IMG/VR virus record: IMGVR_UViG_3300029319_000012
Location: 42,406 to 106,405 of that record
Length of the DNA stretch: 64,000 nt
Strand: one strand, 5' to 3'
Source: a virus
Below the pieces are notes generated by a model. That model worked only from the letters and a program-made list of their open reading frames with translations, did not search any database and was not told the DNA's origin. The position numbers were made by a program, and so were the translations under genes. Numbering within the stretch: the first letter of the stretch is position 1; every line of letters starts with the position of its first letter. Positions 1,793-64,000 of this stretch are shown here, one piece after another.

Positions 1793-2177
1793 ATATGGAT
1801 TAGCGGCATCTGTCATTATCAATGCTGTTTTTTTAATGTATGTGCTTGGTGTAGTTTATTTTTTGCTATACGTGAGTGCTTTAATTAATATTTTATTAAT
1901 TGTTTACTGTGTAACTCTTTTAAGAAAAGAAAATAGACTCAGGGATGATGTCATGTCAATTTTTAAGTCTATAGAGGAATTTTCAGATCATTTAGATAAT
2001 TTATATTCTCTAGAGACTTTTTATGGGGATGAAACCATTCAAGGCTTAATCGACCACTCTAGAGGTGTCATTAATGATATTGTCAATATGCAAGAAAAAT
2101 ATTATGATGACGTAGAAGTTGAGGAAATTAAGTATGACGAAGCCCAAGAGGACGCGCCGGAAAAGGACAACGAATAG
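1785..2177 (+). CDS. Hypothetical membrane protein
   Basis: Two N-terminal hydrophobic segments followed by an acidic helical region; ATG 1785 preferred over the track start. Confidence 0.65.
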   Translation: MIKYGLAASVIINAVFLMYVLGVVYFLLYVSALINILLIVYCVTLLRKENRLRDDVMSIFKSIEEFSDHLDNLYSLETFYGDETIQGLIDHSRGVINDIVNMQEKYYDDVEVEEIKYDEAQEDAPEKDNE

Positions 2178-2835
2178 GTACTTTACCAAAGTACATGAAG
2201 ACGCAATAATTAAATATGCTTTAACAGACTCTAGAGCTGTTAGATCTGATTTATATATTGAGTTTATCGAGCCAGCTTTTCACGAGATGGTAGAAAAGAT
2301 TGTTTTTACATATAAGTTTAATAATCTACCAAACATTGATTATTTAAAAGATGATTGTAAAATATGGCTAATGACAATCCTTGATAAGTATGATCCTAAC
2401 AGAAAGTCAAAAGCGTTCTCTTATTTTAGTGTTATTACAAAAAATTGGTTTATTCATAAAGTAAAGCAAAACTCTAAAAAACTTAAAAGAGATCTTAAGT
2501 ATGAAGATCTAACTAAAGAAACAGAGATTAAAGAGTTAATTGTAGAAAATACTTATGAATCTGACAGAGAAGAAAGAGAATTTTGGATGCATCTTTTTCA
2601 AGAGATGGAAAGTTGGGAAAAGCTTAAGCTTAAAGATAATGAGAAAAAAGTACTTGATGCCATAAAAATTCTATTTGACAGCATTGAACAAATTGAGATT
2701 TTTAACAAAAAAGCTATTTACCTATACATGAGAGAAATCACAGGGTTGAATACAAAACAGATTGTCAATAACCTGAATAGAATCAGAAAAAGGTATAGGA
2801 GCTTTGTTGTCGAATGGCAAAAGGGAAACATATAG
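2134..2835 (+). CDS. Phage sigma factor, probably gp55-like late sigma
   Basis: LDKYDPNRKSKAFSYFSVITKNWF resembles sigma region 2 (gp55 xFxYFxxI pattern); C-terminal HTH-like REITGLNTKQI; GAGG upstream of ATG 2134; lies just before the structural block. Confidence 0.7.
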   Translation: MTKPKRTRRKRTTNRYFTKVHEDAIIKYALTDSRAVRSDLYIEFIEPAFHEMVEKIVFTYKFNNLPNIDYLKDDCKIWLMTILDKYDPNRKSKAFSYFSVITKNWFIHKVKQNSKKLKRDLKYEDLTKETEIKELIVENTYESDREEREFWMHLFQEMESWEKLKLKDNEKKVLDAIKILFDSIEQIEIFNKKAIYLYMREITGLNTKQIVNNLNRIRKRYRSFVVEWQKGNI

Positions 2836-47804: not shown

Positions 47805-50800
47805 ATGAAGTTTGCACATATAGCGGATACTCATATTCGCAATTTAAAGTTTCACAAGGAATATAGAGAGGTTTTTGCACAGCTTTATAAAAAGCTGCAA
47901 AAGCTTAAGCCAGATTACATTATACATTGTGGGGATATCGCACATACAAAAACTCAGATTAGTCCAGAGTTTGTTGAGATGTGCTCTGACTTTCTCAAAA
48001 ATTTAGCAGATATCGCACCCACTTATGTTATTCTGGGTAATCATGACGGCAATTTAAAAAATTCTAGTCGTCAAGACGCATTAACACCTATCGTTAATGC
48101 GTTAGAGCATGATTCATTATATTTACTTAAGGATTCAGGAGAGGTAATACTAAATGACCAATTTGCAATCAACGTTCTTTCAGTTTTTGACAGAGACAAT
48201 TGGCAGGACCCCACCGACAATAACCGAGTTAACATTGGTTTGTACCACGGTTCTATTAGTGGTATAAAAACTGATACTGGCTGGGTAATGGAGCACGGCG
48301 AAAATGATATCAGCATTTTTAATAATTTTGACTACGGCTTTCTTGGTGATATCCACAAGACAAACCAAAGTTTAAATGAAAGTGGCACAATAAGATACTG
48401 TGGTTCCACAGTTCAACAGAATCATGGTGAAAGCAATGATAAGGGTTTTCTTGTTTGGGATATTCAAGACAAAGACAACTATACTTGCGAGCATCATATT
48501 TTATTAAATCCTAAGCCTTTTATAAGTTTAGGTTTGACGCCCAAGGGTAGGTTGCCTCAGAAGCCTGAAGTACAAAAAGGTGCAAGATTAAGGCTAATTT
48601 CTGAGAATAATTTACCTTTAGATGCCATTCGTCGAGCAGTCGATGCAGCCAAAGTGCGCTTTAAGCCAGAGTCAGTGACCTACCTTAATAGAAATGCAGG
48701 TAATCATGGCAGTGTCGACAGTTTAGCTAATAAACTTTTTAAAGAAAATCTTCGTGATATTGCTGTGCAGGAAGAGTTGATCAAAGAATACTTGTCTGAC
48801 TATCAGCCTGATGACGATACGTTAGCTTCTATCTTCGAAATGAATAAGAAGTATAATATGATTGTCGAGAAAGAAGAAGAAACTAAGCGCAATGTTAATT
48901 GGCAGCTAAAATCTTTAGAGTGGGATAATCTTTTTAATTACGGTGAAGGCAACAAAGTTCAATTTTCATCACTTGATGGTATTGTTGGTATTCTTGGTAA
49001 GAACTTCTCTGGCAAGTCAAGCGTGATTGATAGCTTACTATACACCTTGTATAACACTACGTCAAAGAAAAATAGAAAAAACTATAATATCATTAACCAG
49101 AACGAAGAAAACGCTCGTGGCAAAGTTCAGATTGATATTGGCACAAAGACATACACAATTGAAAGAAAAAGTACAAAATATGTTAAGCGTCTCAAGGGCA
49201 AAGAAACCAATGAGGCTAAGACAGACGTAGAGTTTACTGTTTTTGACAACGCAACGGAAGTTGAGACTAGTTTAAATGGAATCACAAGACTAGAGACTGA
49301 CAAAAACATTCGCAAGGTGTTTGGCACACTAGATGACTTTCTTACAACGTCTATGGCTAGCCAGCTGGAGTCTTTATCGTTTATCAATGAGGGTTCTGTA
49401 AAAAGAAAAGAGACATTGGCAAAGTTCCTGGACCTTGAGTTTTTCGAGCAGAAGTTCAAACTAGCAAAAGAAGAGTCATCAGATCTCAAAGGCGCTATCA
49501 AAAAAATGCAAGATCGTGACTTTGATGCAGATATTAAAGAATCTGACACTGAGCTAGCTAGAGTTCAAACTGAGTTAATGAACAAGCAAAGACTGGAACA
49601 AGAAAAGCTAGAGCACATATCTGATCTTAAGTCTAATCTAGCAAACACACAAAAGCAAATTGACTCTGTACCGGAAGAAGTTGTTGATATCAAAAAGGTA
49701 TTAAAGAATTTAAAGAAAATAGAAAAGCAAGCCGCTGTTTTAAAAACTAATTTAGATAAGAAGCAGGAGGAGTTCGCGCATGATAACAAATTTTTACAAA
49801 AAATTGAAACATTCCTCGGGAGTTTTGATATTGAAAATGTTAATAGTGAAAAACAAACTGCAGCAAGATATCGAGAAGAGCTGCGAGAAATGGAACGAGA
49901 TTTTGAGCAATACGAAAAAAGAAGAGTAGTAATTGATGACAAGATAAGTTTTATGAAAGCTGCTCCATGTTCTTTAGCTTTGCAAGATAAATGTCAGTTT
50001 ATATCAGATGTCAGAAGGGCTGCTGATGATCTGAATAGGGTAAAGATTGGAATGAATCAGTTAACCTTAGTCAAGAACAAAAAACAACAGCAGCTAGACA
50101 ACATTAATGAAGTAAAGCTTGATGAGTATTCAAAAAAGTATACACAATTAATGGAGAAAAGAATTAGCGTGAAAGATGCTGTTTCAAAGCTTGAAGTTGA
50201 CATTGAAAAAGATAAGCTACAAGTTTTGAAAGCTCAAGGCATTCTTAAGGATCTTAAAGCAAAAGAGGCATTATACGAACAACATCGTGATGCTATTGAA
50301 AATGTTGAAGGTCTTGTTTTAGAAAAAGACAGATTATTGAAAAAAATTGATGTCGCCACAACAGACATGTCAGCCTTCAGAGGACAAATTGCGAAGCTGC
50401 ATCAGTCTGTTGGTCGAGAAGAAGAGCGAAACCAGCAGATTAAAAACCAAAAGCAAGATTTTGAAGATATGCAAAAAGAATTTACTGCTGCACATCTTTT
50501 TATGACTTGCATGCACGCCAATGGCATTTCATATGATATTATTAAAAAGCGCTTGCCTATTATTAATGATGAGATTGCAAAAACATTAAGCAACATTGTC
50601 GACTTCGAAGTTAACTTTGAAAACGATGATAAGAAACTAGACATTGCGATTAAACATCCAGCATATGATGCAAGACCCATTGAGATGGGCTCTGGTGCAG
50701 AGAAAACAATTGCAGCTATGGCTATTCGTTTAGCTCTTTTAAACGTTTCCACACTTCCAAAAGGTGATGTATTTATTCTTGATGAGCCAGGCACTGCCCT

Positions 50801-50960
50801 TGATGCAGATAATATGGAAGGCTTTATTAGAATTCTTGATATGATCAAGACACAATTTAAAACTGTCCTTCTTATATCGCACTTAGACTCATTAAAAGAT
50901 ATTGTCGATTCTCAAATTATGATTGAGAAACTAGAAGGTAAAGCATATGTCAATGAATAG
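47805..50960 (+). CDS. Fused SbcD/Mre11 nuclease and SbcC/Rad50 ATPase (T4 gp47-gp46-like) in one polypeptide
   Basis: ADTH, CGD, GNHD, YHG, GDIH phosphoesterase motifs, then GKNFSGKSS Walker A, long coiled coil, GSGAEK signature, FILDEP Walker B, ISH. Confidence 0.92.
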   Translation: MKFAHIADTHIRNLKFHKEYREVFAQLYKKLQKLKPDYIIHCGDIAHTKTQISPEFVEMCSDFLKNLADIAPTYVILGNHDGNLKNSSRQDALTPIVNALEHDSLYLLKDSGEVILNDQFAINVLSVFDRDNWQDPTDNNRVNIGLYHGSISGIKTDTGWVMEHGENDISIFNNFDYGFLGDIHKTNQSLNESGTIRYCGSTVQQNHGESNDKGFLVWDIQDKDNYTCEHHILLNPKPFISLGLTPKGRLPQKPEVQKGARLRLISENNLPLDAIRRAVDAAKVRFKPESVTYLNRNAGNHGSVDSLANKLFKENLRDIAVQEELIKEYLSDYQPDDDTLASIFEMNKKYNMIVEKEEETKRNVNWQLKSLEWDNLFNYGEGNKVQFSSLDGIVGILGKNFSGKSSVIDSLLYTLYNTTSKKNRKNYNIINQNEENARGKVQIDIGTKTYTIERKSTKYVKRLKGKETNEAKTDVEFTVFDNATEVETSLNGITRLETDKNIRKVFGTLDDFLTTSMASQLESLSFINEGSVKRKETLAKFLDLEFFEQKFKLAKEESSDLKGAIKKMQDRDFDADIKESDTELARVQTELMNKQRLEQEKLEHISDLKSNLANTQKQIDSVPEEVVDIKKVLKNLKKIEKQAAVLKTNLDKKQEEFAHDNKFLQKIETFLGSFDIENVNSEKQTAARYREELREMERDFEQYEKRRVVIDDKISFMKAAPCSLALQDKCQFISDVRRAADDLNRVKIGMNQLTLVKNKKQQQLDNINEVKLDEYSKKYTQLMEKRISVKDAVSKLEVDIEKDKLQVLKAQGILKDLKAKEALYEQHRDAIENVEGLVLEKDRLLKKIDVATTDMSAFRGQIAKLHQSVGREEERNQQIKNQKQDFEDMQKEFTAAHLFMTCMHANGISYDIIKKRLPIINDEIAKTLSNIVDFEVNFENDDKKLDIAIKHPAYDARPIEMGSGAEKTIAAMAIRLALLNVSTLPKGDVFILDEPGTALDADNMEGFIRILDMIKTQFKTVLLISHLDSLKDIVDSQIMIEKLEGKAYVNE

Positions 50961-50968
50961 ACTATTTA
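50961..50968 (+). promoter_or_regulatory. Candidate late promoter (ACTATTTA)
   Basis: Occupies most of a 12-nt intergenic gap, 4 nt before GTG 50973. Confidence 0.6.
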
Positions 50969-50972
50969 TAAC

Positions 50973-51524
50973 GTGCAGAAACTATTTGAAAATTGGCGAC
51001 AGTATCTACAGGAAAGTAAAGGCAGCAAATATAAAGAATTGCTAAGCGCCATTCTCAAAGGAGACCAGGCTTTAAGAAAAGAATTTGCATTGTTAATAAA
51101 AAAAGAAGGCGGCTGGTCAAGAGAATTGGCAAATAGATTTGCAGAAAAGCACGGCAATCCAAAAGACGATATATTTGGTGACAAAACAAGACATAAAAAA
51201 ATACTGCCAGTTTTACCTAAATTAGATTATCAAAACTTTGACGATGAAGATTGGAGCAATCTTGATCCTTTTATAATACATTTAAGAGATAGAAAATATT
51301 TACCTGTTCGTAAAAAAGTATTATTAGCCATGGTTAAATATAAAAGATACTGGCGAGATTTAACAACTGATATGGCAAGAGAACTTGATATGCTTCCAGA
51401 GCTTGAAAATACTCAATTATCATATCCAACAGATACTCAAGATAATGGAAAAGTTGACAAGCTTTTAAAAAGCAAAGGTATGGGTTGGGAGCAATTAAAA
51501 AATCAAGTTTTACAAACTAAATAA
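50973..51524 (+). CDS. Hypothetical protein with KLFENWR leader; body weakly DUF6624-like
   Basis: MQKLFENWRQYLQE leader; DQALR, IIHLRD, LTTD and NTQ recall the DUF6624 DQxxR / QH / LxDR / GTQ order. Confidence 0.6.
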   Translation: MQKLFENWRQYLQESKGSKYKELLSAILKGDQALRKEFALLIKKEGGWSRELANRFAEKHGNPKDDIFGDKTRHKKILPVLPKLDYQNFDDEDWSNLDPFIIHLRDRKYLPVRKKVLLAMVKYKRYWRDLTTDMARELDMLPELENTQLSYPTDTQDNGKVDKLLKSKGMGWEQLKNQVLQTK

Positions 51525-51531
51525 CTACTTA
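51524..51531 (+). promoter_or_regulatory. Candidate late promoter (ACTACTTA)
   Basis: Spans the last stop-codon base and the short gap; 4 nt before ATG 51536. Confidence 0.55.
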
Positions 51532-51535
51532 TTAT

Positions 51536-52093
51536 ATGAAAAAACTATTTGAAAACTGGCGAAAGTATGTAAACGAACAATCTTCTGTTGTCCCAGGCAC
51601 TGGACCTGAGGGCACTAGTGGAATTGAGCAAGCAACTCAAAGTTTGATTCGAAAAAAAATACTAGAGCCAAAGCCTAAGTCAGCCGGGTCTAAACAGGCA
51701 GCTGCAAATGTTGAATTTGATCCTGAGTCTTTAGAAGTTGCAACCGACGATTTTGATGATGAGGATGCAGCTGCCGAAGATACGCCTAGCGCCGAGCCTG
51801 AAGCAGCTGCAGGAGGGAGAGAGGCAAGAGAGTTTGTAGTCTTTTCCATAGATACCGATCACCAAGACGAAATAGTGGATGATTCTTATAAAGATATAAT
51901 GGCATCGAGAGATCCCGAAGAAATAAGACTGGCAGCACAATTTGCTCGTATGGGTGAAAAAGCGGCAAAGGACATACTCAAAAAGCAGTATCGTGAATAT
52001 ATGCAAGCAGTTGCCAGCGGTCAGGTACCACTCACCCCTGATGAAATAAGATCCCTGACAAAAGGGACCATGATCGCATCTGAGCCAAATTAG
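51536..52093 (+). CDS. Acidic hypothetical protein with KLFENWR leader
   Basis: MKKLFENWRKYVNE leader nearly identical to the preceding gene; remainder unrelated. Confidence 0.7.
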   Translation: MKKLFENWRKYVNEQSSVVPGTGPEGTSGIEQATQSLIRKKILEPKPKSAGSKQAAANVEFDPESLEVATDDFDDEDAAAEDTPSAEPEAAAGGREAREFVVFSIDTDHQDEIVDDSYKDIMASRDPEEIRLAAQFARMGEKAAKDILKKQYREYMQAVASGQVPLTPDEIRSLTKGTMIASEPN

Positions 52094-52102
52094 AAATAAT
52101 AA

Positions 52103-52110
52103 ACTACTTA
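52103..52110 (+). promoter_or_regulatory. Candidate late promoter (ACTACTTA)
   Basis: Intergenic, before AGGAGG (52118-52123) and ATG 52132. Confidence 0.55.
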
Positions 52111-52131: not shown

Positions 52132-52326
52132 ATGGCACAGATGAGAGCATGGCTTGACAAACACGTTGAGCGTTTTATTTCAAGAAAGTTTTTGGCGTGG
52201 GGTACGGCTACATACCTTGTCTATATGAACGCCCTTACGAGCGAAGATTGGGTTGCAGTCACGCTTGCTTATATCGGATCACAAGCACTTGTTGATCTTG
52301 CCACGCAATGGAAACATGGAAGATGA
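52132..52326 (+). CDS. Small two-TM membrane protein, holin-like
   Basis: 64 aa; SRKF followed by two hydrophobic segments and a short basic C-terminus; strong RBS. Confidence 0.55.
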   Translation: MAQMRAWLDKHVERFISRKFLAWGTATYLVYMNALTSEDWVAVTLAYIGSQALVDLATQWKHGR

Positions 52327-52439
52327 AAAATATATTACAAAAAATCTTAAACTTATTTAAAAAGGCTTGCTGCTGTGTAGAGCAGCGCTGCAAAAGCTGT
52401 TGCGCTTGCTGTAAGTGCGTTAGTTGCGAGGGATGTTAA
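52323..52439 (+). CDS. 38-aa cysteine-rich, metallothionein-like peptide, absent from the ORF track
   Basis: MKNILQKILNLFKKACCCVEQRCKSCCACCKCVSCEGC*; 11 Cys; ATGA overlap upstream and TAATG overlap downstream. Confidence 0.75.
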   Translation: MKNILQKILNLFKKACCCVEQRCKSCCACCKCVSCEGC

Positions 52440-52756
52440 TGAAAATCACAAAACAACGATTAAGGCAGTTAATCAAAGAAGAGCTGGGAAATATTGACAA
52501 AGACGGCGATGCGGATGATGCAGCTGAGTTGCGTGATGAAGGTCAGGAAGTAGAAGAGCTTGTAGGTGATTTAGATTTTTATCATTCTGAGGTGTCTAAA
52601 GATAATAAAGGATTTTTTGCATCTCTAGTTGATATGACAGGCAATTTCTTAGATCGTCGCAAGGATGAGCTAGCTGATGAGTTAAAGCAAGCTTGTATTA
52701 GAGTCTTGCTAGATGCAAAATCAAATGCCTATAAATCAAATTTTCCGTCAAGGTAG
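52439..52756 (+). CDS. Hypothetical protein with MKITKQRLRQLIKEE leader
   Basis: ATG 52439 in a TAATG overlap (preferred to track start 52424); amphipathic leader ending I-K-E, then acidic body. Confidence 0.7.
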   Translation: MKITKQRLRQLIKEELGNIDKDGDADDAAELRDEGQEVEELVGDLDFYHSEVSKDNKGFFASLVDMTGNFLDRRKDELADELKQACIRVLLDAKSNAYKSNFPSR

Positions 52757-52767
52757 GAGTGCATAAT

Positions 52768-53163
52768 ATGCTTACTGTTGTTTTTTGGAAAAAACTTTGG
52801 TCTTGGATTAAACACTATTGGTATTTTCCTATTATAATAGGATTAATAATCTTTGCATATATCTCTGGATCATCTGCAAAAGAGAAACTTTTTAAAGTTC
52901 TAACAGATCAAAAAGAAAATCACAAAAAAGAAATTGAATTAATTAACAATACAAATGTTGAAAAAGAAGAAATTAAAAAAGAAATTATTGAAAAACATAA
53001 AGAAGAAATTGAACGTATTGAACAAGAGCACGGCGTTCAAATTCAAGACCTAGAAGAGGAAAAGCAAGAAGAGCTGCTGTCTACTATTGAAGAAAAGAAA
53101 GATAAGCCAGATGATTTAGCAAAAGATATTGCTGCTCTCCTCGGTGCAAAACACATAGAATAG
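52768..53163 (+). CDS. Membrane-anchored coiled-coil protein (i-spanin-like topology)
   Basis: AGGAG 52755-52759 favours ATG 52768; one N-terminal TM, then an E/K-rich coiled coil. Confidence 0.55.
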   Translation: MLTVVFWKKLWSWIKHYWYFPIIIGLIIFAYISGSSAKEKLFKVLTDQKENHKKEIELINNTNVEKEEIKKEIIEKHKEEIERIEQEHGVQIQDLEEEKQEELLSTIEEKKDKPDDLAKDIAALLGAKHIE

Positions 53164-53173
53164 AAGGTGTAAA

Positions 53174-53632
53174 ATGTTTAAGAAAATTATCGCTGTCATT
53201 GTGTGCGCAATGATGATTATAATTCCAACTAGCGTGTCAGCACAGGAATTGCAAGGTAAAGTTATGTCCCTGGAGTATGATGAAAAAGCTCCCTATGCAG
53301 GCATTCTGCTTGACCCTATCGCAGCATCTAAGATGATTGTTGATAGAAAATACATTTCAAAAGAGATTGAGTTGGAGCTAAGAAAAGAATTTCAAAAAGA
53401 TTTGTCTGATAGAACATTATCACTTAATTTAGTTGAAGCAGAACTACAAAGTCTTCGCGACTTGCATACTAAAACAATTGAGTTGAAGGACAATCAGATT
53501 GATCAGTTGCAAATGGCTCTAAAAGATGAAGTGTCTGATGACCATACGGAGTGGTGGGCACTTGGTGGCGTATTGATTGGCATAGCTCTTTCTGTTGCCG
53601 TGTTTTATGCGAGTGTTGAAGTTGCCAAATGA
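53174..53632 (+). CDS. Exported coiled-coil protein with signal peptide and C-terminal TM
   Basis: MFKKIIAVIVCAMMIIIPTSVSA|Q signal-peptide pattern; WWALGGVLIGIALSVAVFYA C-terminal TM. Confidence 0.6.
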   Translation: MFKKIIAVIVCAMMIIIPTSVSAQELQGKVMSLEYDEKAPYAGILLDPIAASKMIVDRKYISKEIELELRKEFQKDLSDRTLSLNLVEAELQSLRDLHTKTIELKDNQIDQLQMALKDEVSDDHTEWWALGGVLIGIALSVAVFYASVEVAK

Positions 53633-54021: not shown

Positions 54022-54529
54022 AATTGTAAAAGGAATATCCAGAGCAGCCGGCGATGCTTATGATGGCGCAATGGACGAAAACAATGAGCCAATCAAATTT
54101 GGCTTAAAGAGAGAGGAAGGAAATCCGCTTCTTGACCGTAGAACAATGGATGGATTTGGCTGTAAAGTAAGCGGCACTAAGCTAATATTGAGCTATCATT
54201 CTGAGATCCAACTTAAAGAAGTCTATGGTGGCGATTTTGAAGGCGAAATTGAGCAAAGATTAGCTGATATTGTTAGCGGTTTAAAGAAAAGATATAAGAC
54301 ACACACCGGCAAAAACCTTGGTCTTAAAGCTTTAGGCGAAGTTGATGCTCGTGTTGAAAAAATCAGTAATGTTCGTGTGCAGGTCACCGCGCAGAAAATG
54401 TATGAAATTGCTGGCATGGACGGTGTTGAGGTAGTTTTGGATGAATCAAAGCCAGAAGAAAGATTCAAAGAATTTCTATCTCAAAACTCTGACAAGCGCC
54501 CGCCTAATGACTCGCGCAAAGCAGAGTAA
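54002..54529 (+). CDS. Hypothetical protein immediately upstream of TerL
   Basis: 175-aa ORF coupled to terL by TAATG. Confidence 0.7.
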   Translation: MSEAALEIVKGISRAAGDAYDGAMDENNEPIKFGLKREEGNPLLDRRTMDGFGCKVSGTKLILSYHSEIQLKEVYGGDFEGEIEQRLADIVSGLKKRYKTHTGKNLGLKALGEVDARVEKISNVRVQVTAQKMYEIAGMDGVEVVLDESKPEERFKEFLSQNSDKRPPNDSRKAE

Positions 54530-56115
54530 TGTCTTTTAAATTATCGCGAGATGAAATCTTAAAAGAAATTGTTAAGTCTGGCAAGGATCCAGTTTATTTT
54601 ATTAACAATTATGCTAAGATCTCCCACCCAATGCGAGGTCTTATTCCTTTTAATACTTATGATTTCCAAACTGACTTGTTGAAAGATTTCAATGATTATC
54701 GTTTCAATGTCATTCTTAAAGCCCGCCAGCTGGGTATTTCAACAATTACAGCTGCATATGTCGCATGGATGATGATGTTTCATCGCGACAAGAATGTTTT
54801 GGTTATAGCGACAAAGTTTAGCACTGCTGCAAATCTTGTTAAGAAAGTTAAGTCAATACATAGAAACTTGCCAAAATGGATGAAATTAGCGGACATATCT
54901 ATCGATAATAGAACTTCTTTTGAGTTGACTAATGGCTCGCAGATTAAGGCTAGTTCGACATCTGGCGACGCCGGTCGTTCTGAAGCGCTATCTCTCTTGG
55001 TTATTGACGAGGCTGCACACGTTGAAGGTCTGGATGAACTATGGACTGGCTTGTACCCTACACTGTCTACTGGTGGTCGCTGTATTGCTCTCTCAACTCC
55101 TAACGGCGTTGGCAATTGGTTTCATCAAACTTGCATTGACGCAGAGATAGAAAAAAACGATTTTCATTTAGTTACTTTGCCATGGCAAGTACATCCTGAC
55201 AGAGATCAAGAATGGTTTGACAAAGAAACAAAAAATATGTCACGCCGTCAAATTGCTCAGGAGCTAGAATGCAACTTCAATATGTCTGGCGAGACTGTTT
55301 TTCACCCAGAGGATATGGAGCTAATTTCACAAGGTGTTGAAGATCCGAAGTATAAAACTGGCTTTGACAGAAACTTGTGGATTTGGGAAGAGTATAAACC
55401 AGAAAATAATTACATGCTTTCGGGCGATGTCGCTCGGGGCGACGGCGCTGACTATTCAACGTTTCATATCTTTAAATTAGAAACAAATGAGTTGGTTGCA
55501 GAGTACAGAGGCAAGCCAACACCTGATATCTTTGCTGATATGCTGATGGGCGTTGGAAAAGAATATGGTAGTTGTATGATGGTTGTTGAAAACAATTCAG
55601 TTGGATGGACAGTCCTTAACAAGTTGCAAGAGCTAGGCTACCCCAATATATATTATTCTAAGAAATCAACACATGAATATGTTGATCCATTAATGGCGGA
55701 AAGCTCAAATTCAGTCGTGCCTGGATTTACAACTTCTCAAAAAACAAGACCTTTGGTTGTAGCCAAATTAGAAGAGTTTGTTAGAAATAAACTAATTAAC
55801 ATTAGGTCGAAGAGATTATACAATGAGATGAAGACGTTTGTGTGGCAGAATGGCAAGCCACAAGCAATGAAAAAACACAATGATGATTTAATTATGGCGT
55901 GTGCAATAGGCTGCTGGGTTCGTGACACTGCTTTTGCGGTGAACCAAAGAGATGTTGAGTACCAAAAAGCATTTTTATCATCAATAACCACTTCAAATAG
56001 AAAACTAAACACAACAATTCCTGGAATGATTGCTTACGATAAGCTAAAAACAGAGAAAAAATTAGAAAATGCATCAAAAATGTACACTGATCATTTGTGG
56101 CTGCTAAAGGGGTAA
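54529..56115 (+). CDS. terL: Terminase large subunit (T4 gp17-like)
   Basis: KARQLGIS Walker A variant, LLVIDEAAH Walker B, STPNG motif, DVARGDGADYS and HNDDLIMA nuclease motifs. Confidence 0.96.
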   Translation: MSFKLSRDEILKEIVKSGKDPVYFINNYAKISHPMRGLIPFNTYDFQTDLLKDFNDYRFNVILKARQLGISTITAAYVAWMMMFHRDKNVLVIATKFSTAANLVKKVKSIHRNLPKWMKLADISIDNRTSFELTNGSQIKASSTSGDAGRSEALSLLVIDEAAHVEGLDELWTGLYPTLSTGGRCIALSTPNGVGNWFHQTCIDAEIEKNDFHLVTLPWQVHPDRDQEWFDKETKNMSRRQIAQELECNFNMSGETVFHPEDMELISQGVEDPKYKTGFDRNLWIWEEYKPENNYMLSGDVARGDGADYSTFHIFKLETNELVAEYRGKPTPDIFADMLMGVGKEYGSCMMVVENNSVGWTVLNKLQELGYPNIYYSKKSTHEYVDPLMAESSNSVVPGFTTSQKTRPLVVAKLEEFVRNKLINIRSKRLYNEMKTFVWQNGKPQAMKKHNDDLIMACAIGCWVRDTAFAVNQRDVEYQKAFLSSITTSNRKLNTTIPGMIAYDKLKTEKKLENASKMYTDHLWLLKG

Positions 56116-56118
56116 AAA

Positions 56119-58113
56119 ATGGCATCAAAGATTAACAAAAAAGGGTCAAGAAACCCAACAAATCCTTTATTTCAGCAGCTGACCAAGCTTTTGTCTGGTC
56201 CATTGGTTAACTATCGCAGGCAGGACACTAGAAAACTTAAAAGAAGGCAGCTAGATAAGTACAAAACTCGCTTTCGATCAGCCAGCGGCAAAGAATTTAA
56301 GCTTTCTTCCTACGATGATATCTATGGTTCCTTGCAAGCTGATTTTTATGCTAGCCAAAATAGAATTGATAGGTATGTTGACTTTGATCAAATGGAGTAT
56401 ACACCAGAAATTGCATCTGCAATGGATATTTACGCAGATGAAATGACAACCAGCTCTGTCTATAGACCGATTCTTAATATTATTTGTAGCAATCAAGAAA
56501 TTAAAGCAGTTCTTGAGACCTTGTTCTATAATGTTTTAAATGTAGAGTTCAATTTATATGGTTGGTCAAGGTCCATGTGTAAATATGGTGATTATTTTTT
56601 ATATTTGGATATCGAAGAGGACCAAGGAATAAAAAATGTTATTGGCTTGCCTGTTAACGAAGTCGAGCGCCTTGAGGGTGAAGATAAAAATAACCCAAAT
56701 TATGTTCAGTATCAATGGAATACAGCCGGCTTGACATTGGAAAATTGGCAAATGGGTCATTTTCGTATTTTAGGAAATGATAAGTTCGCTCCGTATGGCA
56801 CGTCTATATTGGAGCCGGCAAGAAGAATTTGGAGACAGTTAACTCTTATTGAAGATGCGGTAATGGCTTATAGAGTTGTCCGATCTCCTGACAGAAGAGT
56901 TTTTTATATTGATGTTGGTAACATTCCGCCTGAAGATGTTGAGCAGTACATGCAGCGCGTTATGACACAAATGAAGCGCAATCAGATTGTCGATGTTAAC
57001 TCAGGTCGTGTTGATTTAAGATACAACCCTCTAAGTGTTGAAGAGGATTACTATATTCCTGTGAGAGGACAAGCCTCAAATACAAGAATAGAAAGTCTAG
57101 GTGGAGGAAAATACACTGGGGATATTGAAGATTTAAAATATTTAAGAGATAAGTTGTTCAGTGCGTTAAAAATACCAATGTCTTATTTATCTAGAGGTGA
57201 TGGGCAGGCAGAAGACAAGTCTACCTTGGCACAGAAAGATATTCGCTTTGCAAGAACAATTCAAAGGCTTCAGCGTTCTGTCGTATCGGAGCTAGAAAAA
57301 ATTGCTATTGTTCATTTGTTTACAATGGGCTATCGCGGCAATGATCTATTATCTTTTAAACTAAACTTAAACAATCCGTCAAAACTTGCAGAGCTTCAAG
57401 AGCTAGAGCATTGGAAAGCTCGCTTTGATGCTGCAGGAAATGCTTCAGAGGGCTACTTTAGTCGACGCTGGATTGCAAAAAATATTCTTAATGTTCAAGA
57501 GGAAGAGTTTGAAAGAATGCAGAATGAGATGTTCTATGATAGAAAACATGATTTTGCGTTAGAGCAAGTTGGTGAAGCCATGGCTGCAGCTGCAGGCGGC
57601 GGTGGAGGAGCTGCTCTTCCAGGTCTTGAGGGTGAAGCAGGAGCAGCACCTGATGCTGGTGATATAGACTTGCCTGAACCGGAAGCAACTCCAGAGCCGG
57701 AAGCACCAGCAGACACAGGTCCACTTTTGGCGACACCAGGAGCCGAGCCAGCCGCAGAGCCTAGTCCTGCAGCCCCTGGAAAAAGAGACGACGAAGTAAA
57801 AGATAAATTTGGTCGTACCGTGCGTGTCACAAAAGGTGCAAAGGGTAAAAAGTATCGCCCTGTTGTGGGCGAAGATGGCAGGTCGGGACCAGGCGCTAGA
57901 ATTAAATCTAGGCGCGGTTCTTACGCAGGAGGACCTAAGTCATCTTTCCCAGGCTCAAGCGAGATAAAGAGCATAGCAAAGATGACTAGGCTTTCAGAAA
58001 ATGTTAATGCTAATTATAATGAGCAAGAACAAAGTATATTTAACGACAATAGTCATGTAAAGAAGCTTATTGAGTCTTTAGAGAGGTCCACGGATGAAGC
58101 ACAGTCACAATAA
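56119..58113 (+). CDS. Portal protein (T4 gp20-like)
   Basis: LIEDAVMAYRVVRSPDRRVFYIDVGNIP, EEDYYIPVRG, DIEDLKYLRDKLFSALKIP; follows terL. Confidence 0.95.
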   Translation: MASKINKKGSRNPTNPLFQQLTKLLSGPLVNYRRQDTRKLKRRQLDKYKTRFRSASGKEFKLSSYDDIYGSLQADFYASQNRIDRYVDFDQMEYTPEIASAMDIYADEMTTSSVYRPILNIICSNQEIKAVLETLFYNVLNVEFNLYGWSRSMCKYGDYFLYLDIEEDQGIKNVIGLPVNEVERLEGEDKNNPNYVQYQWNTAGLTLENWQMGHFRILGNDKFAPYGTSILEPARRIWRQLTLIEDAVMAYRVVRSPDRRVFYIDVGNIPPEDVEQYMQRVMTQMKRNQIVDVNSGRVDLRYNPLSVEEDYYIPVRGQASNTRIESLGGGKYTGDIEDLKYLRDKLFSALKIPMSYLSRGDGQAEDKSTLAQKDIRFARTIQRLQRSVVSELEKIAIVHLFTMGYRGNDLLSFKLNLNNPSKLAELQELEHWKARFDAAGNASEGYFSRRWIAKNILNVQEEEFERMQNEMFYDRKHDFALEQVGEAMAAAAGGGGGAALPGLEGEAGAAPDAGDIDLPEPEATPEPEAPADTGPLLATPGAEPAAEPSPAAPGKRDDEVKDKFGRTVRVTKGAKGKKYRPVVGEDGRSGPGARIKSRRGSYAGGPKSSFPGSSEIKSIAKMTRLSENVNANYNEQEQSIFNDNSHVKKLIESLERSTDEAQSQ

Positions 58114-59838: not shown

Positions 59839-60459
59839 ATGTCGAAAGAATTACTTCAAGAATATTTTGAACTGTGCCCTGAAGGTCGCTGCCCTGTACA
59901 TGCGCTAAATGAATCAGAAAAGAAAAGCGTCATGGAAGGAGCGGTCTATCTTGTTGGTATATGCCAAAAAGCTGGTACAAAAAATGGTAATGGTAGAGTG
60001 TATAGAAAAGAGACACTGCAGCGCGAAGTTGAAAGATATCAAAACGCAGTTCGCGAACGTCGTTCTTTAGGCGAGCTTGATCATCCAGATGACTCTGTAA
60101 TTAATTTAAAGAATGCCTCCCACCTTGTAACAAAAATGTGGTGGCAAGGCGATAATGTCATGGGTAAAATTGAGGTGCTAGATACACCATCTGGTAAGAT
60201 TTTAAAAGAGCTGGTAAAGTCTGGAGTGAAATTAGGAATTTCTTCTAGAGGATTAGGCTCTGTTTCTAAAAAAGGTGACAAGCTAATGGTTGAGGATGAT
60301 TTTCAATTAATTTGCTTTGATATGGTTTCGGAGCCATCAACGCCAGGTGCCTACATGAATAAAGATTCTAATGTTGATGCATCAATAAATGTCTACTTAA
60401 AAGAAGAGAAAGAAAATAATAATTTAGACAACCTATTTAAATCGATTTTAAAGGATTAA
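59839..60459 (+). CDS. Prohead core protease (T4 gp21-like)
   Basis: NGNGRVY, GELDHP, GISSRGLGS, FDMVSEPSTPGA. Confidence 0.95.
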   Translation: MSKELLQEYFELCPEGRCPVHALNESEKKSVMEGAVYLVGICQKAGTKNGNGRVYRKETLQREVERYQNAVRERRSLGELDHPDDSVINLKNASHLVTKMWWQGDNVMGKIEVLDTPSGKILKELVKSGVKLGISSRGLGSVSKKGDKLMVEDDFQLICFDMVSEPSTPGAYMNKDSNVDASINVYLKEEKENNNLDNLFKSILKD

Positions 60460-60460
60460 A

Positions 60461-60850
60461 ATGAAAACTGCAGAATTTAAAAAAATAATCAAGCCCCTTA
60501 TTAAGCAGACGGTAAAAGAAGTATTGCTTGAAGAGGGTGTTCTTTCTGGAATTGTTTCAGAGGTAGCAAAAGGCTTATCAAACCAAAGATTGTTTACTGA
60601 GGGCATTACCGTTGAAGCTAAGCAAGAAGATTTACAAGCAAAAGCTGAAAAAATGGAACAAGAAAGACAAGAAAAAATAAAACGTCTTAATGAATCGGCA
60701 AAAACTTCTGGTGCTTTTAAAAACACAAGACCAATACCTGATTCTGGAGGGCATGGACCTTTATCAGGAGTTAGCTCTGGAGATAAGGGCGTTGACATCA
60801 CTGCTATTCAGCAAATAGCTAATGGCAAGTGGAAGGCTTTAATGGGTTAG
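60461..60850 (+). CDS. Head-module hypothetical protein with amphipathic leader
   Basis: MKTAEFKKIIKPLIKQTVKEVLLEE leader; several L/V-x-E sites. Confidence 0.7.
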   Translation: MKTAEFKKIIKPLIKQTVKEVLLEEGVLSGIVSEVAKGLSNQRLFTEGITVEAKQEDLQAKAEKMEQERQEKIKRLNESAKTSGAFKNTRPIPDSGGHGPLSGVSSGDKGVDITAIQQIANGKWKALMG

Positions 60851-60853
60851 AAA

Positions 60854-61087
60854 ATGTCTGAAAAAGTAGTAAATGTGAAAGTTACAGCAAAACAATGCGG
60901 GTATGATATTACAAAGATGATTCGCAGATTTACAAAAAAAGTTAAAAAACAAAGAGTAATTCAAGAGGTGCTCGACCGCAGGTTTTTTGAAAAACCCTCT
61001 AAAAAAAGAAGACTTGCAAGACTTAAAAAGAAAAGAAACGCTCAAAAAGCAGAGCGAGAAAGAAATAAAAAACTAGATATAAAGTAG
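60854..61087 (+). CDS. rpsU: Phage-encoded 30S ribosomal protein bS21
   Basis: VKV...KMIRRFTKKVKK...EVLDRRFFEKPSKKRR matches the bS21 V-x-V...LRRFK...E...R..YEKP(S/T)..R pattern; 77 aa, highly basic. Confidence 0.85.
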   Translation: MSEKVVNVKVTAKQCGYDITKMIRRFTKKVKKQRVIQEVLDRRFFEKPSKKRRLARLKKKRNAQKAERERNKKLDIK

Positions 61088-61676: not shown

Positions 61677-61708
61677 TTATTGACAAATTGTCTTCTAGGA
61701 GCTTAAGC

Positions 61709-62851
61709 ATGTCTGAAATGTTAGAACAAGCGATTATTGATGCAACTGCTTTAAAGCAAGCTGCAGTTAAAAACGCAGAAACTTTAGTATTAGAAAAATA
61801 TTCAAATGAGATTGAAAGTGCGGTGCAAGCACTTTTAGAGCAAGATGCCCCTGAGGCAGATTTGCCAGACATGCTCGGTACACCTGACGCCCCTGAAGCT
61901 GATTTGGGCGGATCAGATCCTACTGCTGGTCAAGCTCAGCTTTCTGTTAGTGACGATATACCAATGGCGTCGACAGATGATTCTGATGCAACAATTGAAA
62001 TTGCTTTAGATCAGCTAATGGAAGAGCTAGATTTAGCTGCAGAGGACTTAGACATGGATCTTACAGAAGAAGACTTGGATCCTCTAGAGGAGCTTGAGCT
62101 GGCTGAGATAGAGCTTGAAGAGGAAGAGGCTAAGCCAGAGGAGCCGGTTGAAGATGATGCTGCAGCAGCTATTGAAAAAGCCAATCAGACATCTGATGAG
62201 AGTTTTATTGCGCGCATGACACAAGCCATGGCTGAAGCACGCCAAGAAACTGTTGCCGAGCAATTGACTGTTGATATCAAGCCAATGAAGAGAGGCTGGG
62301 CAGGCATTTCTGAAGGCGAGCTAGAAATCGCCGAAGAAGAGCTTCTTGCAATGGAGCAAGACTCCAAAGTTAGAGAAGAGCGCGCAGCAATCAGAAAAGC
62401 TGTTAAAGCTTTAGAGGGAGTGAATGAATCACTCGTCGAAAAAAACAATACATTAAAAGAAAGCTTATCTAACAAAGATGGCAAAATAAAACAATTACAA
62501 AAAATCGCTAGTTTAATGAAAGAGGAATTGGAAAATCTTTCCCTAACAAACACCAAGCTAGTGTTACAAAATAAGGCACTTACAAGCGACTCGTTAAATG
62601 GGCGGCAAAAGCAAAAGCTTGCCGAAGCTATCTCAAGTGCCGAGACAGTTGAAGAGGCTAAAGTTATTTACGAAACCCTTCAAAGCACAGTGGGCAGCAC
62701 CTCAAGCAAAAAGCAGCCAGAGTCACTAGGCGAAGCAGTTCAAAAAACCTCTTCTATAATATTGTCGAATAGGAACCAAGGTTCTGAAAGACAAAAAGCT
62801 AATCCAACGCTCGATCGTTGGAAATTCCTTGCTGGAATACAAAAAGACTAA
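61709..62851 (+). CDS. Prohead scaffold (T4 gp22-like)
   Basis: Very acidic, coiled-coil, many L-x-E sites, ends RWKFLAGI; directly before the capsid gene; ATG 61709 has AGGAG. Confidence 0.8.
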   Translation: MSEMLEQAIIDATALKQAAVKNAETLVLEKYSNEIESAVQALLEQDAPEADLPDMLGTPDAPEADLGGSDPTAGQAQLSVSDDIPMASTDDSDATIEIALDQLMEELDLAAEDLDMDLTEEDLDPLEELELAEIELEEEEAKPEEPVEDDAAAAIEKANQTSDESFIARMTQAMAEARQETVAEQLTVDIKPMKRGWAGISEGELEIAEEELLAMEQDSKVREERAAIRKAVKALEGVNESLVEKNNTLKESLSNKDGKIKQLQKIASLMKEELENLSLTNTKLVLQNKALTSDSLNGRQKQKLAEAISSAETVEEAKVIYETLQSTVGSTSSKKQPESLGEAVQKTSSIILSNRNQGSERQKANPTLDRWKFLAGIQKD

Positions 62852-62875: not shown

Positions 62876-64000
62876 ATGTCTGTATTACAAAAGCTTACTG
62901 AAGGTATCGTCGAAAGATCCCTCCAGAGAGAAGGTGCTGCACTTTTAGATAAGTGGGAAGCAACCGGACTTCTTGAGGGCCTGGGTGACGATAACAACAA
63001 AGCGGGCATGGCCCGTCTTTTAGAGAACCAAGCAGCCCAGCTTCTTAAAGAGGCTTCATCCATGGCTCAAGGTGATGTCGAAGGCTTCGCAAGCGTTGCT
63101 TTCCCAATTGTCCGTCGTGTTTTCGGTGGACTTCTTGCTAACGATTTAGTTAGCGTCCAACCAATGAGCCTCCCATCGGGACTCATTTTCTTTATGGACT
63201 TCACTTACAGTGATCAAACAAGAGCACGCCTGGGCCTAGACCAGGGCGAGTCTGTTTACGGTGGTGGCGTGGTTGCCAGCCAGCTCACAGGTGGTGTTTC
63301 TGACATTACTGAAGAGGGTGGCGGTTTCTACAACCTCGCAAACGCTTACTCTTCGCCTACCGGTTCTGCGGGTGCAGCTAATGACACTGGCTTAGGCATG
63401 CGTGTTGTTCACCTCACCGCAGGTGGCAAGCTTGTTTCGGCTCTTACTGATGCTGAGAAGAAGCTTGTTAAGTACGATCCTGACCTTCTTGCTAACACTA
63501 CACACAAGGTTCAGGTTATTGACTGCGATTTTAGTGATCTTAGTAATCTTAACCTTGACATGGTTCAAGCCATTGAGCTTCAAACATCTTCAGACATCAT
63601 TCAAGGTTTTGATGATGATGATGGTGGCGTCGAGGGTCTCGGTGCTTCCACAATTACACATGTGCGTCGCTTGACACAGTTAATTGAGACAACTCCTGGA
63701 AGTGGTGTTAGGGATCTTCTTCGTATTGTCCTCGTTGATAGCACTGGTGCTGATACAATCGACTTCGCCGGTCAAGCGTTTGTGCCTCAAACTGACGGTG
63801 TAAACACAGACCAGCTCGGTGTTGCTTCTTACCCAATTGCTGACTCTTTCACACATGTTGAGCTTGGTAATGTCCGTGGTTCTAACTTCCCTCTAGAAGG
63901 TTCACCAGACACCAAGGCTGGAACTTCAGGTCTTAACATCGACATCCCTGAGATCGATCTCAAGGTGGATTCAATTCCTGTCACTGCGATGACCAGAAAG
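62876..64000 (+). CDS. Major capsid protein (T4 gp23-like), 3'-truncated, absent from the ORF track
   Basis: AGGAG at 62863; MSVLQKLTEG...KWEATGLLEG...ARLLENQ...PIVRRVF...LVSVQPMSLPSGLIFF...IPEIDLKVDSIPVTAMTRK; open to the window end. Confidence 0.95.
   Translation, partial: MSVLQKLTEGIVERSLQREGAALLDKWEATGLLEGLGDDNNKAGMARLLENQAAQLLKEASSMAQGDVEGFASVAFPIVRRVFGGLLANDLVSVQPMSLPSGLIFFMDFTYSDQTRARLGLDQGESVYGGGVVASQLTGGVSDITEEGGGFYNLANAYSSPTGSAGAANDTGLGMRVVHLTAGGKLVSALTDAEKKLVKYDPDLLANTTHKVQVIDCDFSDLSNLNLDMVQAIELQTSSDIIQGFDDDDGGVEGLGASTITHVRRLTQLIETTPGSGVRDLLRIVLVDSTGADTIDFAGQAFVPQTDGVNTDQLGVASYPIADSFTHVELGNVRGSNFPLEGSPDTKAGTSGLNIDIPEIDLKVDSIPVTAMTRK

Follow-up and report, generated by a model that had tools for sequence, protein, structure and literature searches.

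Why should two adjacent viral genes, whose products are otherwise unlike, open with nearly the same 14 residues and carry a similar short DNA motif at the same distance ahead of their start codons? The question arises in a 64,000-nucleotide stretch of DNA, positions 42,406-106,405 of IMG/VR record IMGVR_UViG_3300029319_000012, that is referred to here as the window (coordinates are those of the window unless "genome" is stated). The shared N-terminal peptide will be called the leader, and the rest of each protein its cargo. The answer that we favour, which we hold to be probable and far from assured, is that the leader is a transferable propeptide that would work like the capsid-targeting sequence (CTS) of the phage T4 internal proteins, with a new sequence.

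One leader on unrelated proteins

Gene 1 (50973..51524, + strand, 183 aa) begins MQKLFENWRQYLQE and gene 2 (51536..52093, + strand, 185 aa) begins MKKLFENWRKYVNE; 12 of the first 14 residues are identical. The leader codons of gene 1 (50973..51014, + strand) read M/V-QKLFENWRQYLQE and end in L-Q-E|S, the bar marking the predicted cut; those of gene 2 (51536..51577, + strand) encode the MKKLFENWRKYVNE already given and end in V-N-E|Q. Promoter-like motifs, ACTATTTA at 50961..50968 and ACTACTTA at 51524..51531 (both on the + strand), end 4 nucleotides (nt) ahead of the respective start codons, and neither gene has a Shine-Dalgarno sequence between motif and start. At the DNA level the two genes agree at 9 of the 12 nt upstream, at 34 of the 42 nt of leader codons and at 10 of the 54 nt that follow. 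BLASTP aligns the leader region only, and the two genes are therefore not full-length paralogues. A prior examination based on the letters of the DNA (the sequence-only reading) had claimed a common start, similar also as DNA, with ACTA(T/C)TTA 4 nt ahead of each gene and divergence past residue 14; all of this holds, including its expectation that full-length paralogy would not be found, with the correction that gene 1 starts with GTG (its first residue read as M) and not with ATG as gene 2 does. The sharing of the leader by genes 1 and 2 is more than chance.

A six-frame motif search located a third exact copy outside the window, at genome 8398. It begins MKKLFENWRNFINE, 4 nt after CTATTTA, and belongs to a protein of 438 aa that has an Amidase_2 domain. 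The gene that follows, at genome 9711, opens with the diverged, leader-like MNPIIEKWKQFLKE and encodes 519 aa with a NUDIX domain; this diverged leader has no promoter motif of its own and is not detected by a hidden Markov model (HMM) of the leader that was built from other contigs only. Searched against the six-frame translation of the whole genome, that HMM matches exactly three open reading frames (ORFs), with E values of 3e-10, 1e-8 and 8e-7, the next match being at E 3. The leader copies of this genome sit on cargoes without detectable mutual similarity.

The third gene of this row (genome 8398-12107; L084), after the leader-amidase and the NUDIX protein with its diverged leader, is a leaderless canonical endolysin (PG_binding_1 and Amidase_2). 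Its presence two genes away weakens the idea that the leader-amidase is itself the endolysin and suggests instead a second, differently addressed cell-wall hydrolase. In a relative (L053) the first position of the row, the same genomic slot as this genome's amidase, is taken by the same leader on a Peptidase_M74 murein endopeptidase.

How far does the leader extend beyond this genome? The sequence-only reading had proposed scanning related genomes and cataloguing the cargo, and had allowed that the leader might occur nowhere else. An exact degenerate-DNA search of IMG/VR for M-x-K-L-F-E-N-W-R settles that point with 91 leader genes in 83 stretches, representing 75 distinct N-termini. After removal of the first 16 residues and clustering by BLASTP at 1e-5, their cargoes fall into 44 unrelated clusters, of which 33 are singletons. 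Most match nothing; the domains that were found are Amidase_2, Peptidase_M74, NUDIX, thioredoxin, NTP_transf_2, cytidylyltransferase and DUF3293. With a looser pattern each record yields 1-5 leader genes, frequently in tandem and without exception on the coding strand, and a reversed control pattern gave no matches. (A homology search limited to the first 40 residues returned a single candidate.) The same scan of one genome for each of 185,579 bacterial and archaeal species (596 Gb) yielded 8 matches, about the chance number, none of them at a comparable ORF start; the leader is therefore virus-specific.

Because the cargo folds are unrelated, the leader has been joined to its cargoes and is not the remnant of one diverging family. 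That rival account would have a single fast-evolving paralogous family of which only the N-terminus is still recognisable, with no transferable function. The frequent tandem arrangement of leader genes would suit it, as would the second-tier modules that some cargoes share after the leader, but Amidase_2, Peptidase_M74, NUDIX, thioredoxin and nucleotidyltransferase folds cannot share one ancestor, and we give the idea almost no credence.

The cargoes of the two window genes are among those without a recognisable family: Pfam and PHROGs searches returned nothing for either, and an ESM Atlas search with window cargo gave no usable match. The mature part of gene 1 is basic (isoelectric point, pI, 9.5) and all-helical. 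Its homologues are a handful, 50-82% identical, and the leader or a variant of it (e.g. MRRLLENWR...LLKE) is kept in every full-length one (five of the six that were read; the sixth is a C-terminal fragment). AlphaFold predicts a helical domain (pTM 0.73) and places the leader apart from it as a low-confidence helix of residues 2-14, with a break between leader helix and cargo fold at the predicted cut site; the model found no match in PDB or BFVD. The mature part of gene 2 is acidic (pI 4.4) and is predicted to be mostly disordered, with a short helical C-terminal region (AlphaFold). Among 1.84 billion representative proteins only its leader and a linker of ~45 aa are common to two other proteins, and its C-terminal 120 aa are an orphan in that collection. 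In certain relatives (L028, L035, L065, L073) the cargo proteins are mosaics of short modules recurring in varied order, with junctions that often follow ...EMNE, a Met-x-Glu site resembling the leader end; their sequences suggest small polyproteins cut at several sites.

The leader peptide and its C-terminal end

The leader consensus is M-[KQN]-K-L-F-E-N-W-R-x-[YFH]-[LIV]-x-E, 14 residues long. An [LIV]-x-E ending at residues 13-21 is found in 71 of the 75 distinct N-termini, in 56 of them at residue 14; the other four have T-N-E or F-N-E at residues 12-14. All 15 N-termini in which extra residues shift the spacing keep [LIV]-x-E, the background in the cargo parts being 12.7% per 11-residue window. 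The residue that follows the Glu is most commonly Ala, then Asp, Gln, Gly, Glu or Ser. L/I-x-E is the motif after which T4 gp21 cleaves, and it also closes the T4 CTS (PMC9026906).

Does this virus make a protease for such a site? The window encodes a prohead protease of the T4 gp21 family (Peptidase_S77, E 1e-30; 59839..60459, + strand), which is presumed to be the leader-removing enzyme, and Peptidase_S77 homologues are present in all six complete leader-bearing genomes. A guide to its specificity is the Gp23-like major capsid protein (62876..64000, + strand; the gene runs off the end of the record), whose propeptide ends ...ARLLENQAAQLLKE|ASS at residue 59 (QLLKE|ASS), just ahead of the Gp23 domain. 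The cut-site motif is conserved as L-[KR]-E|A in two relatives and as [LIV]-S-E|A in Microcystis phage Mel-JY01 and Flavobacterium phage immuto, and it is equivalent to the ...FLTE|AEI of T4 gp23, as read from the T4 record. Because the capsid site is conserved in relatives and equivalent to that of T4, these sequences indicate that the protease of the lineage very probably has T4 specificity and that the leader ends in a site for it.

The DNA of the leader shows what is being selected. Among 76 distinct leader DNAs every degenerate codon position varies; Leu4 is encoded by five codons and Arg9 by six (CGN and AGR). The residues K3-L-F-E-N-W-R9 were fixed by the search pattern in this analysis, while residues 11, 12 and 14 were left free and nevertheless remain conserved. 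Since degenerate positions vary and amino acids are kept, selection acts on the peptide, contrary to what a purely nucleic-acid signal would require. The reading as a Sec, Tat or lipoprotein signal peptide was rejected: such a peptide has a hydrophobic core of at least 7 residues behind a basic N-region, and the leader, which is amphipathic with charges along its whole length (K, E, N, R, K, N, E), contains no hydrophobic run.

The leader also resembles, by eye, the cut-proximal segment of the capsid propeptide, with L-[FL]-E-N and then hydrophobic-x-E (AKIFENQ in T4, ARLLENQ in this lineage). The leader HMM does not detect the capsid protein, and the likeness is therefore a lead and not a finding. 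Two motifs of the capsid propeptide itself (window 62876-63052; L087:19346; L088:18060; L102:6946) are kept from T4 to this lineage: LL-x-KW...LLEG and, shortly ahead of the L-x-E|A cut, hydrophobic-hydrophobic-E/Q-N-Q. They may mark scaffold or protease contacts.

A second type of leader, of the form MKITKxxLKQIIKEE, likewise ends in hydrophobic-x-E; it heads at least five small proteins of this genome (window 52439-52756; genome 22862, 23799, 24519 and 24742, L085) and is seen also at L088:4352 and L088:14519. The gene at genome 22862 starts 4 nt after CTATTTA. The cultured phage immuto has similar N-termini, MKKSQLRQIIKEAL and MKKSQIVKAVQEVLEE, of which one lies between the genes for portal and protease, so that the second type could be tested in a cultured phage.

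The CTAYTTA motif and the start codon

The sequence-only reading had taken promoter, leaderless start, targeting peptide and protease site as a single module of ~55 bp. How much of that unit is real? As an octamer, ACTAYTTA shows no enrichment in the window (10 copies against 6.3 expected). The placement of CTAYTTA in the whole genome is non-random, with 33 copies on the + strand against 6 on the - strand. Twelve of these copies are followed by a called start at 4-21 nt, and a thirteenth lies 16 nt ahead of an internal ATG that is probably the true start. They form two classes. In the first the spacing is 15-21 nt and a clear Shine-Dalgarno sequence is present; the gene that follows the protease (60461-60850, 129 aa) belongs here, as does the one at 52132 for a 64-aa protein, and ACTACTTA itself recurs in this ordinary setting at 52103..52110 (+ strand), 21 nt and an AGGAGG ahead of the next gene. 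In the second class the spacing is exactly 4 nt and there is no Shine-Dalgarno sequence; it comprises four genes, all with N-terminal leaders, three being copies of the present leader and one bearing the second type. (For the candidate scaffold gene the spacing is 11 nt as called, or 32 nt if an ATG after AGGAG is the true start.) Relatives that have CTAYTTA place it at 4-5 nt, or at 19 nt with a Shine-Dalgarno sequence.

By analogy, CTAYTTA is probably a late promoter. It resembles the T4 late promoter in being a single -10-like element in a genome that encodes a gp55-like late sigma factor (2119..2835, + strand; phrog_234, E 4e-5), a candidate reader of CTAYTTA. The T4 consensus TATAAATA, centred near -10, is not matched by the motif here, (A)CTAYTTA, which is an analogue at best. 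Because the T4 late motif is centred near -10, transcription would here begin 4-5 nt past the motif, on the start codon, and a leaderless mRNA is thus a reasonable inference; from this geometry (4 nt here, 4-5 nt in relatives, no Shine-Dalgarno sequence) a leaderless start in this phage is probable.

It does not follow that promoter and peptide are one unit, since CTAYTTA also precedes ordinary Shine-Dalgarno genes and many relatives carry the leader behind quite different upstream DNA; the promoter is therefore not an obligatory part of the module. In about 22 of the loci L001-L083 a conserved 24 nt, ACTAAGTATGAATGGATTAGCAAC, stands just upstream. It was considered as a 6-codon upstream ORF and in fact encodes the C-terminus (...SMNGLAT, stop) of a conserved gene that lies upstream. 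The TGA of that gene overlaps the ATG of the leader gene, which points to translational coupling in place of an abutting promoter. Promoter and leader being separable, the conserved module is the peptide. The ~55-bp combination is real in this phage and its closest relatives; what has not stood is the view of it as a unit conserved across the lineage.

These observations bear on a further explanation, that the leader is an expression element, the N-terminal codons or the nascent peptide providing a context for translation of leaderless late mRNA and having no role in sorting. The exact 4-nt spacing of the three leader copies and the one gene of the second type, with no Shine-Dalgarno sequence and with 4-5 nt in relatives, is what such an element would lead one to expect, and the first leader codons are A-rich. 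Set against this, in many relatives the leader stands behind a 19-nt untranslated region that has a Shine-Dalgarno sequence, or its start overlaps an upstream stop; the diverged fourth copy of this genome has no promoter of its own; and the codons change freely among synonyms, whereas the amino acids, among them Trp-Arg and the distal [LIV]-x-E, persist. We regard a pure expression role as quite improbable.

Slots, a proposed mechanism and known systems

The leader genes lie close to the head module. Of the 91, 45 occupy the same slot as genes 1 and 2, bounded upstream by an SbcD/SbcC-like gene and downstream by a 64-aa membrane protein, 8-11 kb upstream of the protease; these 45 sit directly upstream of the homologue of the 64-aa protein. 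Six lie directly ahead of the terminase gene and two between portal-side genes and the protease, the rest being spread over a few other slots that include the amidase-copy slot. The leader genes are thus confined to a few hypervariable loci with repeated regulatory DNA. In one locus (L001) a homologue of the gene 1 cargo, 84% identical, is found in the amidase-copy slot beside another leader gene; cargo genes therefore change leader slots.

How might such a leader work? On the reading that we favour, leader genes would be expressed late, from a CTAYTTA promoter read by the gp55-like sigma factor, with the transcript in this phage starting at or beside the start codon and giving a leaderless mRNA. 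The amphipathic leader helix would dock the protein on the scaffolding core during prohead assembly, the gp21-type protease would then cut after the Glu of [LIV]-x-E so that mature cargo is free inside the head, and at infection the cargo would go out together with the DNA. Of these steps we infer the late timing, the leaderless start, the docking, the cleavage and the ejection. The ~54 bp of near-identical DNA (motif and leader codons) would be a plausible site of homologous exchange, by which cargo could be moved among the few permissive slots. The sequence-only reading had already likened the leader to the T4 CTS. That comparison is sustained by the shared leader, the [LIV]-x-E end, the S77 protease, the variable slots next to the head module and the presence of cargo in different slots; the part of it that made the promoter obligatory has to be given up.

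The T4 internal proteins IPI, IPII and IPIII carry the CTS MKTYQEFIAE, which is removed by the gp21 prohead protease (PMC9026906, reviewing Mullaney and Black 1996). Like the leader, it is a short amphipathic N-terminal peptide on otherwise unrelated proteins, ending in [LI]-x-E, in a phage whose protease is of the gp21 family and whose portal and capsid protein are of T4 type. The copies within one genome are near-identical in DNA in either case (the leader codons of T4 ipII and ipIII agree at 30 of 30 positions). The differences are also clear. The leader has 14 residues and the CTS 10; coincidences are limited to M1, K2, a hydrophobic residue 4 and E6 (M-K-x-hydrophobic-x-E, from the T4 record); KLFENWR is almost invariant here, whereas T4 tolerates many substitutions; and the cargoes here include predicted enzymes of 350-690 aa and not just small basic proteins. 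Four of the six features that define the T4 internal-protein system are found here: a common N-terminal tag on unlike proteins, its L/I-x-E end, a gp21-type protease together with a capsid protein that has a cleavable propeptide, and variable loci that bear repeated regulatory sequence. Similarity to MKTYQEFIAE is not one of them. The leader is therefore an analogue, not a demonstrable homologue, of the T4 CTS.

The slots have a parallel of their own. T-even internal-protein loci are reported to hold more than 30 variants at two small loci, where flanking repeated promoter elements are thought to mediate exchange, and T4 recombination is reported to need less than 50 bp of homology (PMC2839356). 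Hypervariable T-even loci (Repoila et al. 1994; Comeau et al. 2007) and the PeSL regulatory cassettes of RB49 and phi1 are treated in the same source (PMC2839356). The likeness is that variable cargo occupies few slots, each gene following a repeated regulatory sequence able to serve as a patch of homology; the difference is that the repeat consists here of a probable late promoter, set against the start codon, and of the leader codons, and there of an early promoter with a stem-loop. A third comparison is with the giant phages phiKZ, 201phi2-1 and SPN3US, in which propeptides of head and inner-body proteins are cut after Glu by gp21-like proteases (PMC9026906, PMC5694885). Those phages too process many head-internal proteins after a short x-x-E by a diverged gp21 homologue. 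What is new here is the tag sequence and its uncultured marine lineage; the principle is known from phage T4. The propeptides of giant phages are long and different from protein to protein, and are not one shared, near-identical 14-residue tag.

An uncleaved docking helix would account for several of the same facts. It would attach late proteins to some other assembly or partner (tail, baseplate, membrane complex or a compartment made by the phage) and not to the capsid interior. Two of the cargoes are peptidoglycan hydrolases, and virion-associated cell-wall hydrolases are often tail-associated. KLFENWR is, moreover, nearly invariant, which is stricter than T4 targeting requires, where mainly residues 4 and 7 matter (PMC9026906). 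Such a helix would have no need for [LIV]-x-E to survive shifts of spacing, and the leader genes cluster by the head module and not the tail module; the predicted separation of leader and cargo fold, with its break at the putative cut site, also speaks for a removable peptide over a docking helix. We consider the docking helix unlikely.

A leader might also be the recognition sequence of a modifying enzyme, as in systems for ribosomally synthesized and post-translationally modified peptides or in tags linked to radical S-adenosylmethionine (SAM) enzymes, and a radical SAM enzyme is indeed encoded at genome 39708-40106. Its gene lies in a glycan island ~50 kb from the window leader genes, and no conserved enzyme gene flanks the leader slots. 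The radical SAM version was rejected on the absence of such a gene from four of the six complete leader-bearing genomes, and recognition by a modifying enzyme seems to us very improbable.

What stands against capsid targeting itself? The leader has no sequence similarity to MKTYQEFIAE, and the thioredoxin, NUDIX and cytidylyltransferase cargoes are housekeeping-type enzymes with no obvious reason to be injected. GTG, with which gene 1 starts, suits leaderless translation poorly. Neither leader nor cargo turned up when 50,697 named phage records were searched with DNA and protein, and hence no cultured carrier was found; a pattern search with 2 mismatches found the leader absent from Mel-JY01 and immuto; and the motif LFENWR was not found in the literature. 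All leader-bearing contigs with sufficient flanks belong to the window's lineage (terminase ~67%, portal ~65% and protease ~62% identical), common descent links most of the N-termini that have the site at residue 14, and the co-occurrence of S77 protease and leader is confounded because all carriers share this kinship. These points temper the reading; they leave it, in our judgement, the probable one.

A bolder form of the same idea would have the whole uncultured marine T4-like lineage use one sequence-predictable tag to load a fast-changing set of proteins into the capsid for delivery to the host. The tag would have been copied from the cut-proximal segment of the capsid propeptide (the sequences compared being ...KLFENWRKYVNE| for the leader and ...RLLENQAAQLLKE| for the capsid propeptide); fused to a leaderless late promoter, the cassette would make cargo of any captured gene in one recombination step. 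Among the loaded proteins would be cell-wall hydrolases, a NUDIX hydrolase, thioredoxin and nucleotidyltransferases. In this full form the idea is doubtful. If the tag does lead proteins into the capsid, the injected proteins of widespread uncultured ocean phages could be read from sequence, in at least 44 cargo families, most without known function, and the injected set is where anti-defence and host-takeover proteins are expected. Nature would then offer, independently, a second instance of the T4 principle by which foreign proteins are packaged in phage heads. For the study of leaderless late expression in phages, a promoter that abuts its start codon provides a compact case.

The genome and its head module

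The window forms the final 64 kb of a virus record of 106,405 bp, which has a CheckV completeness of 59% and a G+C content of 37% and carries essentially all of its genes on one strand. When portal proteins are compared, its nearest named phages, at 35-44% identity, are Mel-JY01 (44%), immuto (41%) and Rhodothermus phage RM378. Judged by these relationships the source is an uncultured, distant T4-like phage of a marine lineage.

The head module is of T4 type. The large terminase (54529-56115) and Portal_T4 (56119-58113) genes precede the protease. Between protease and capsid gene a frame at 61688..62851 (+ strand) encodes an acidic, coiled-coil-like protein with many [LIV]xE sites and CTATTTA upstream; it has no family match and is a scaffold candidate by position and composition. 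Within the module, between protease-side genes and the scaffold candidate, window 60854-61087 encodes a homologue of ribosomal protein S21 (Pfam Ribosomal_S21, E 3e-8, above cut-off), and Mel-JY01 has an annotated one at the same place. The S21 homologue may bear on the coexistence of late genes led by a Shine-Dalgarno sequence with others that are apparently leaderless.

The upstream edge of the variable slot is a fused nuclease-ATPase gene (47805..50960, + strand), which joins an SbcD/Mre11-like nuclease and an SbcC/Rad50-like ATPase in one frame of 1051 aa, a fusion that is kept in relatives at ~47-51% identity. The downstream edge is the conserved 64-aa membrane protein (52132..52326, + strand), which is also the first member of a group of small genes ahead of the packaging genes (window 52132-53632). 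Three more belong to it. An ORF of 43 codons (38 if counted from its second ATG) encodes 11 Cys; a protein of 134 aa has a membrane helix at its N-terminus and matches Rz-like spanins weakly (E 0.007); and the N-terminus of a 152-aa protein resembles, by eye, a signal peptide. The four together may be a lysis-type cassette.

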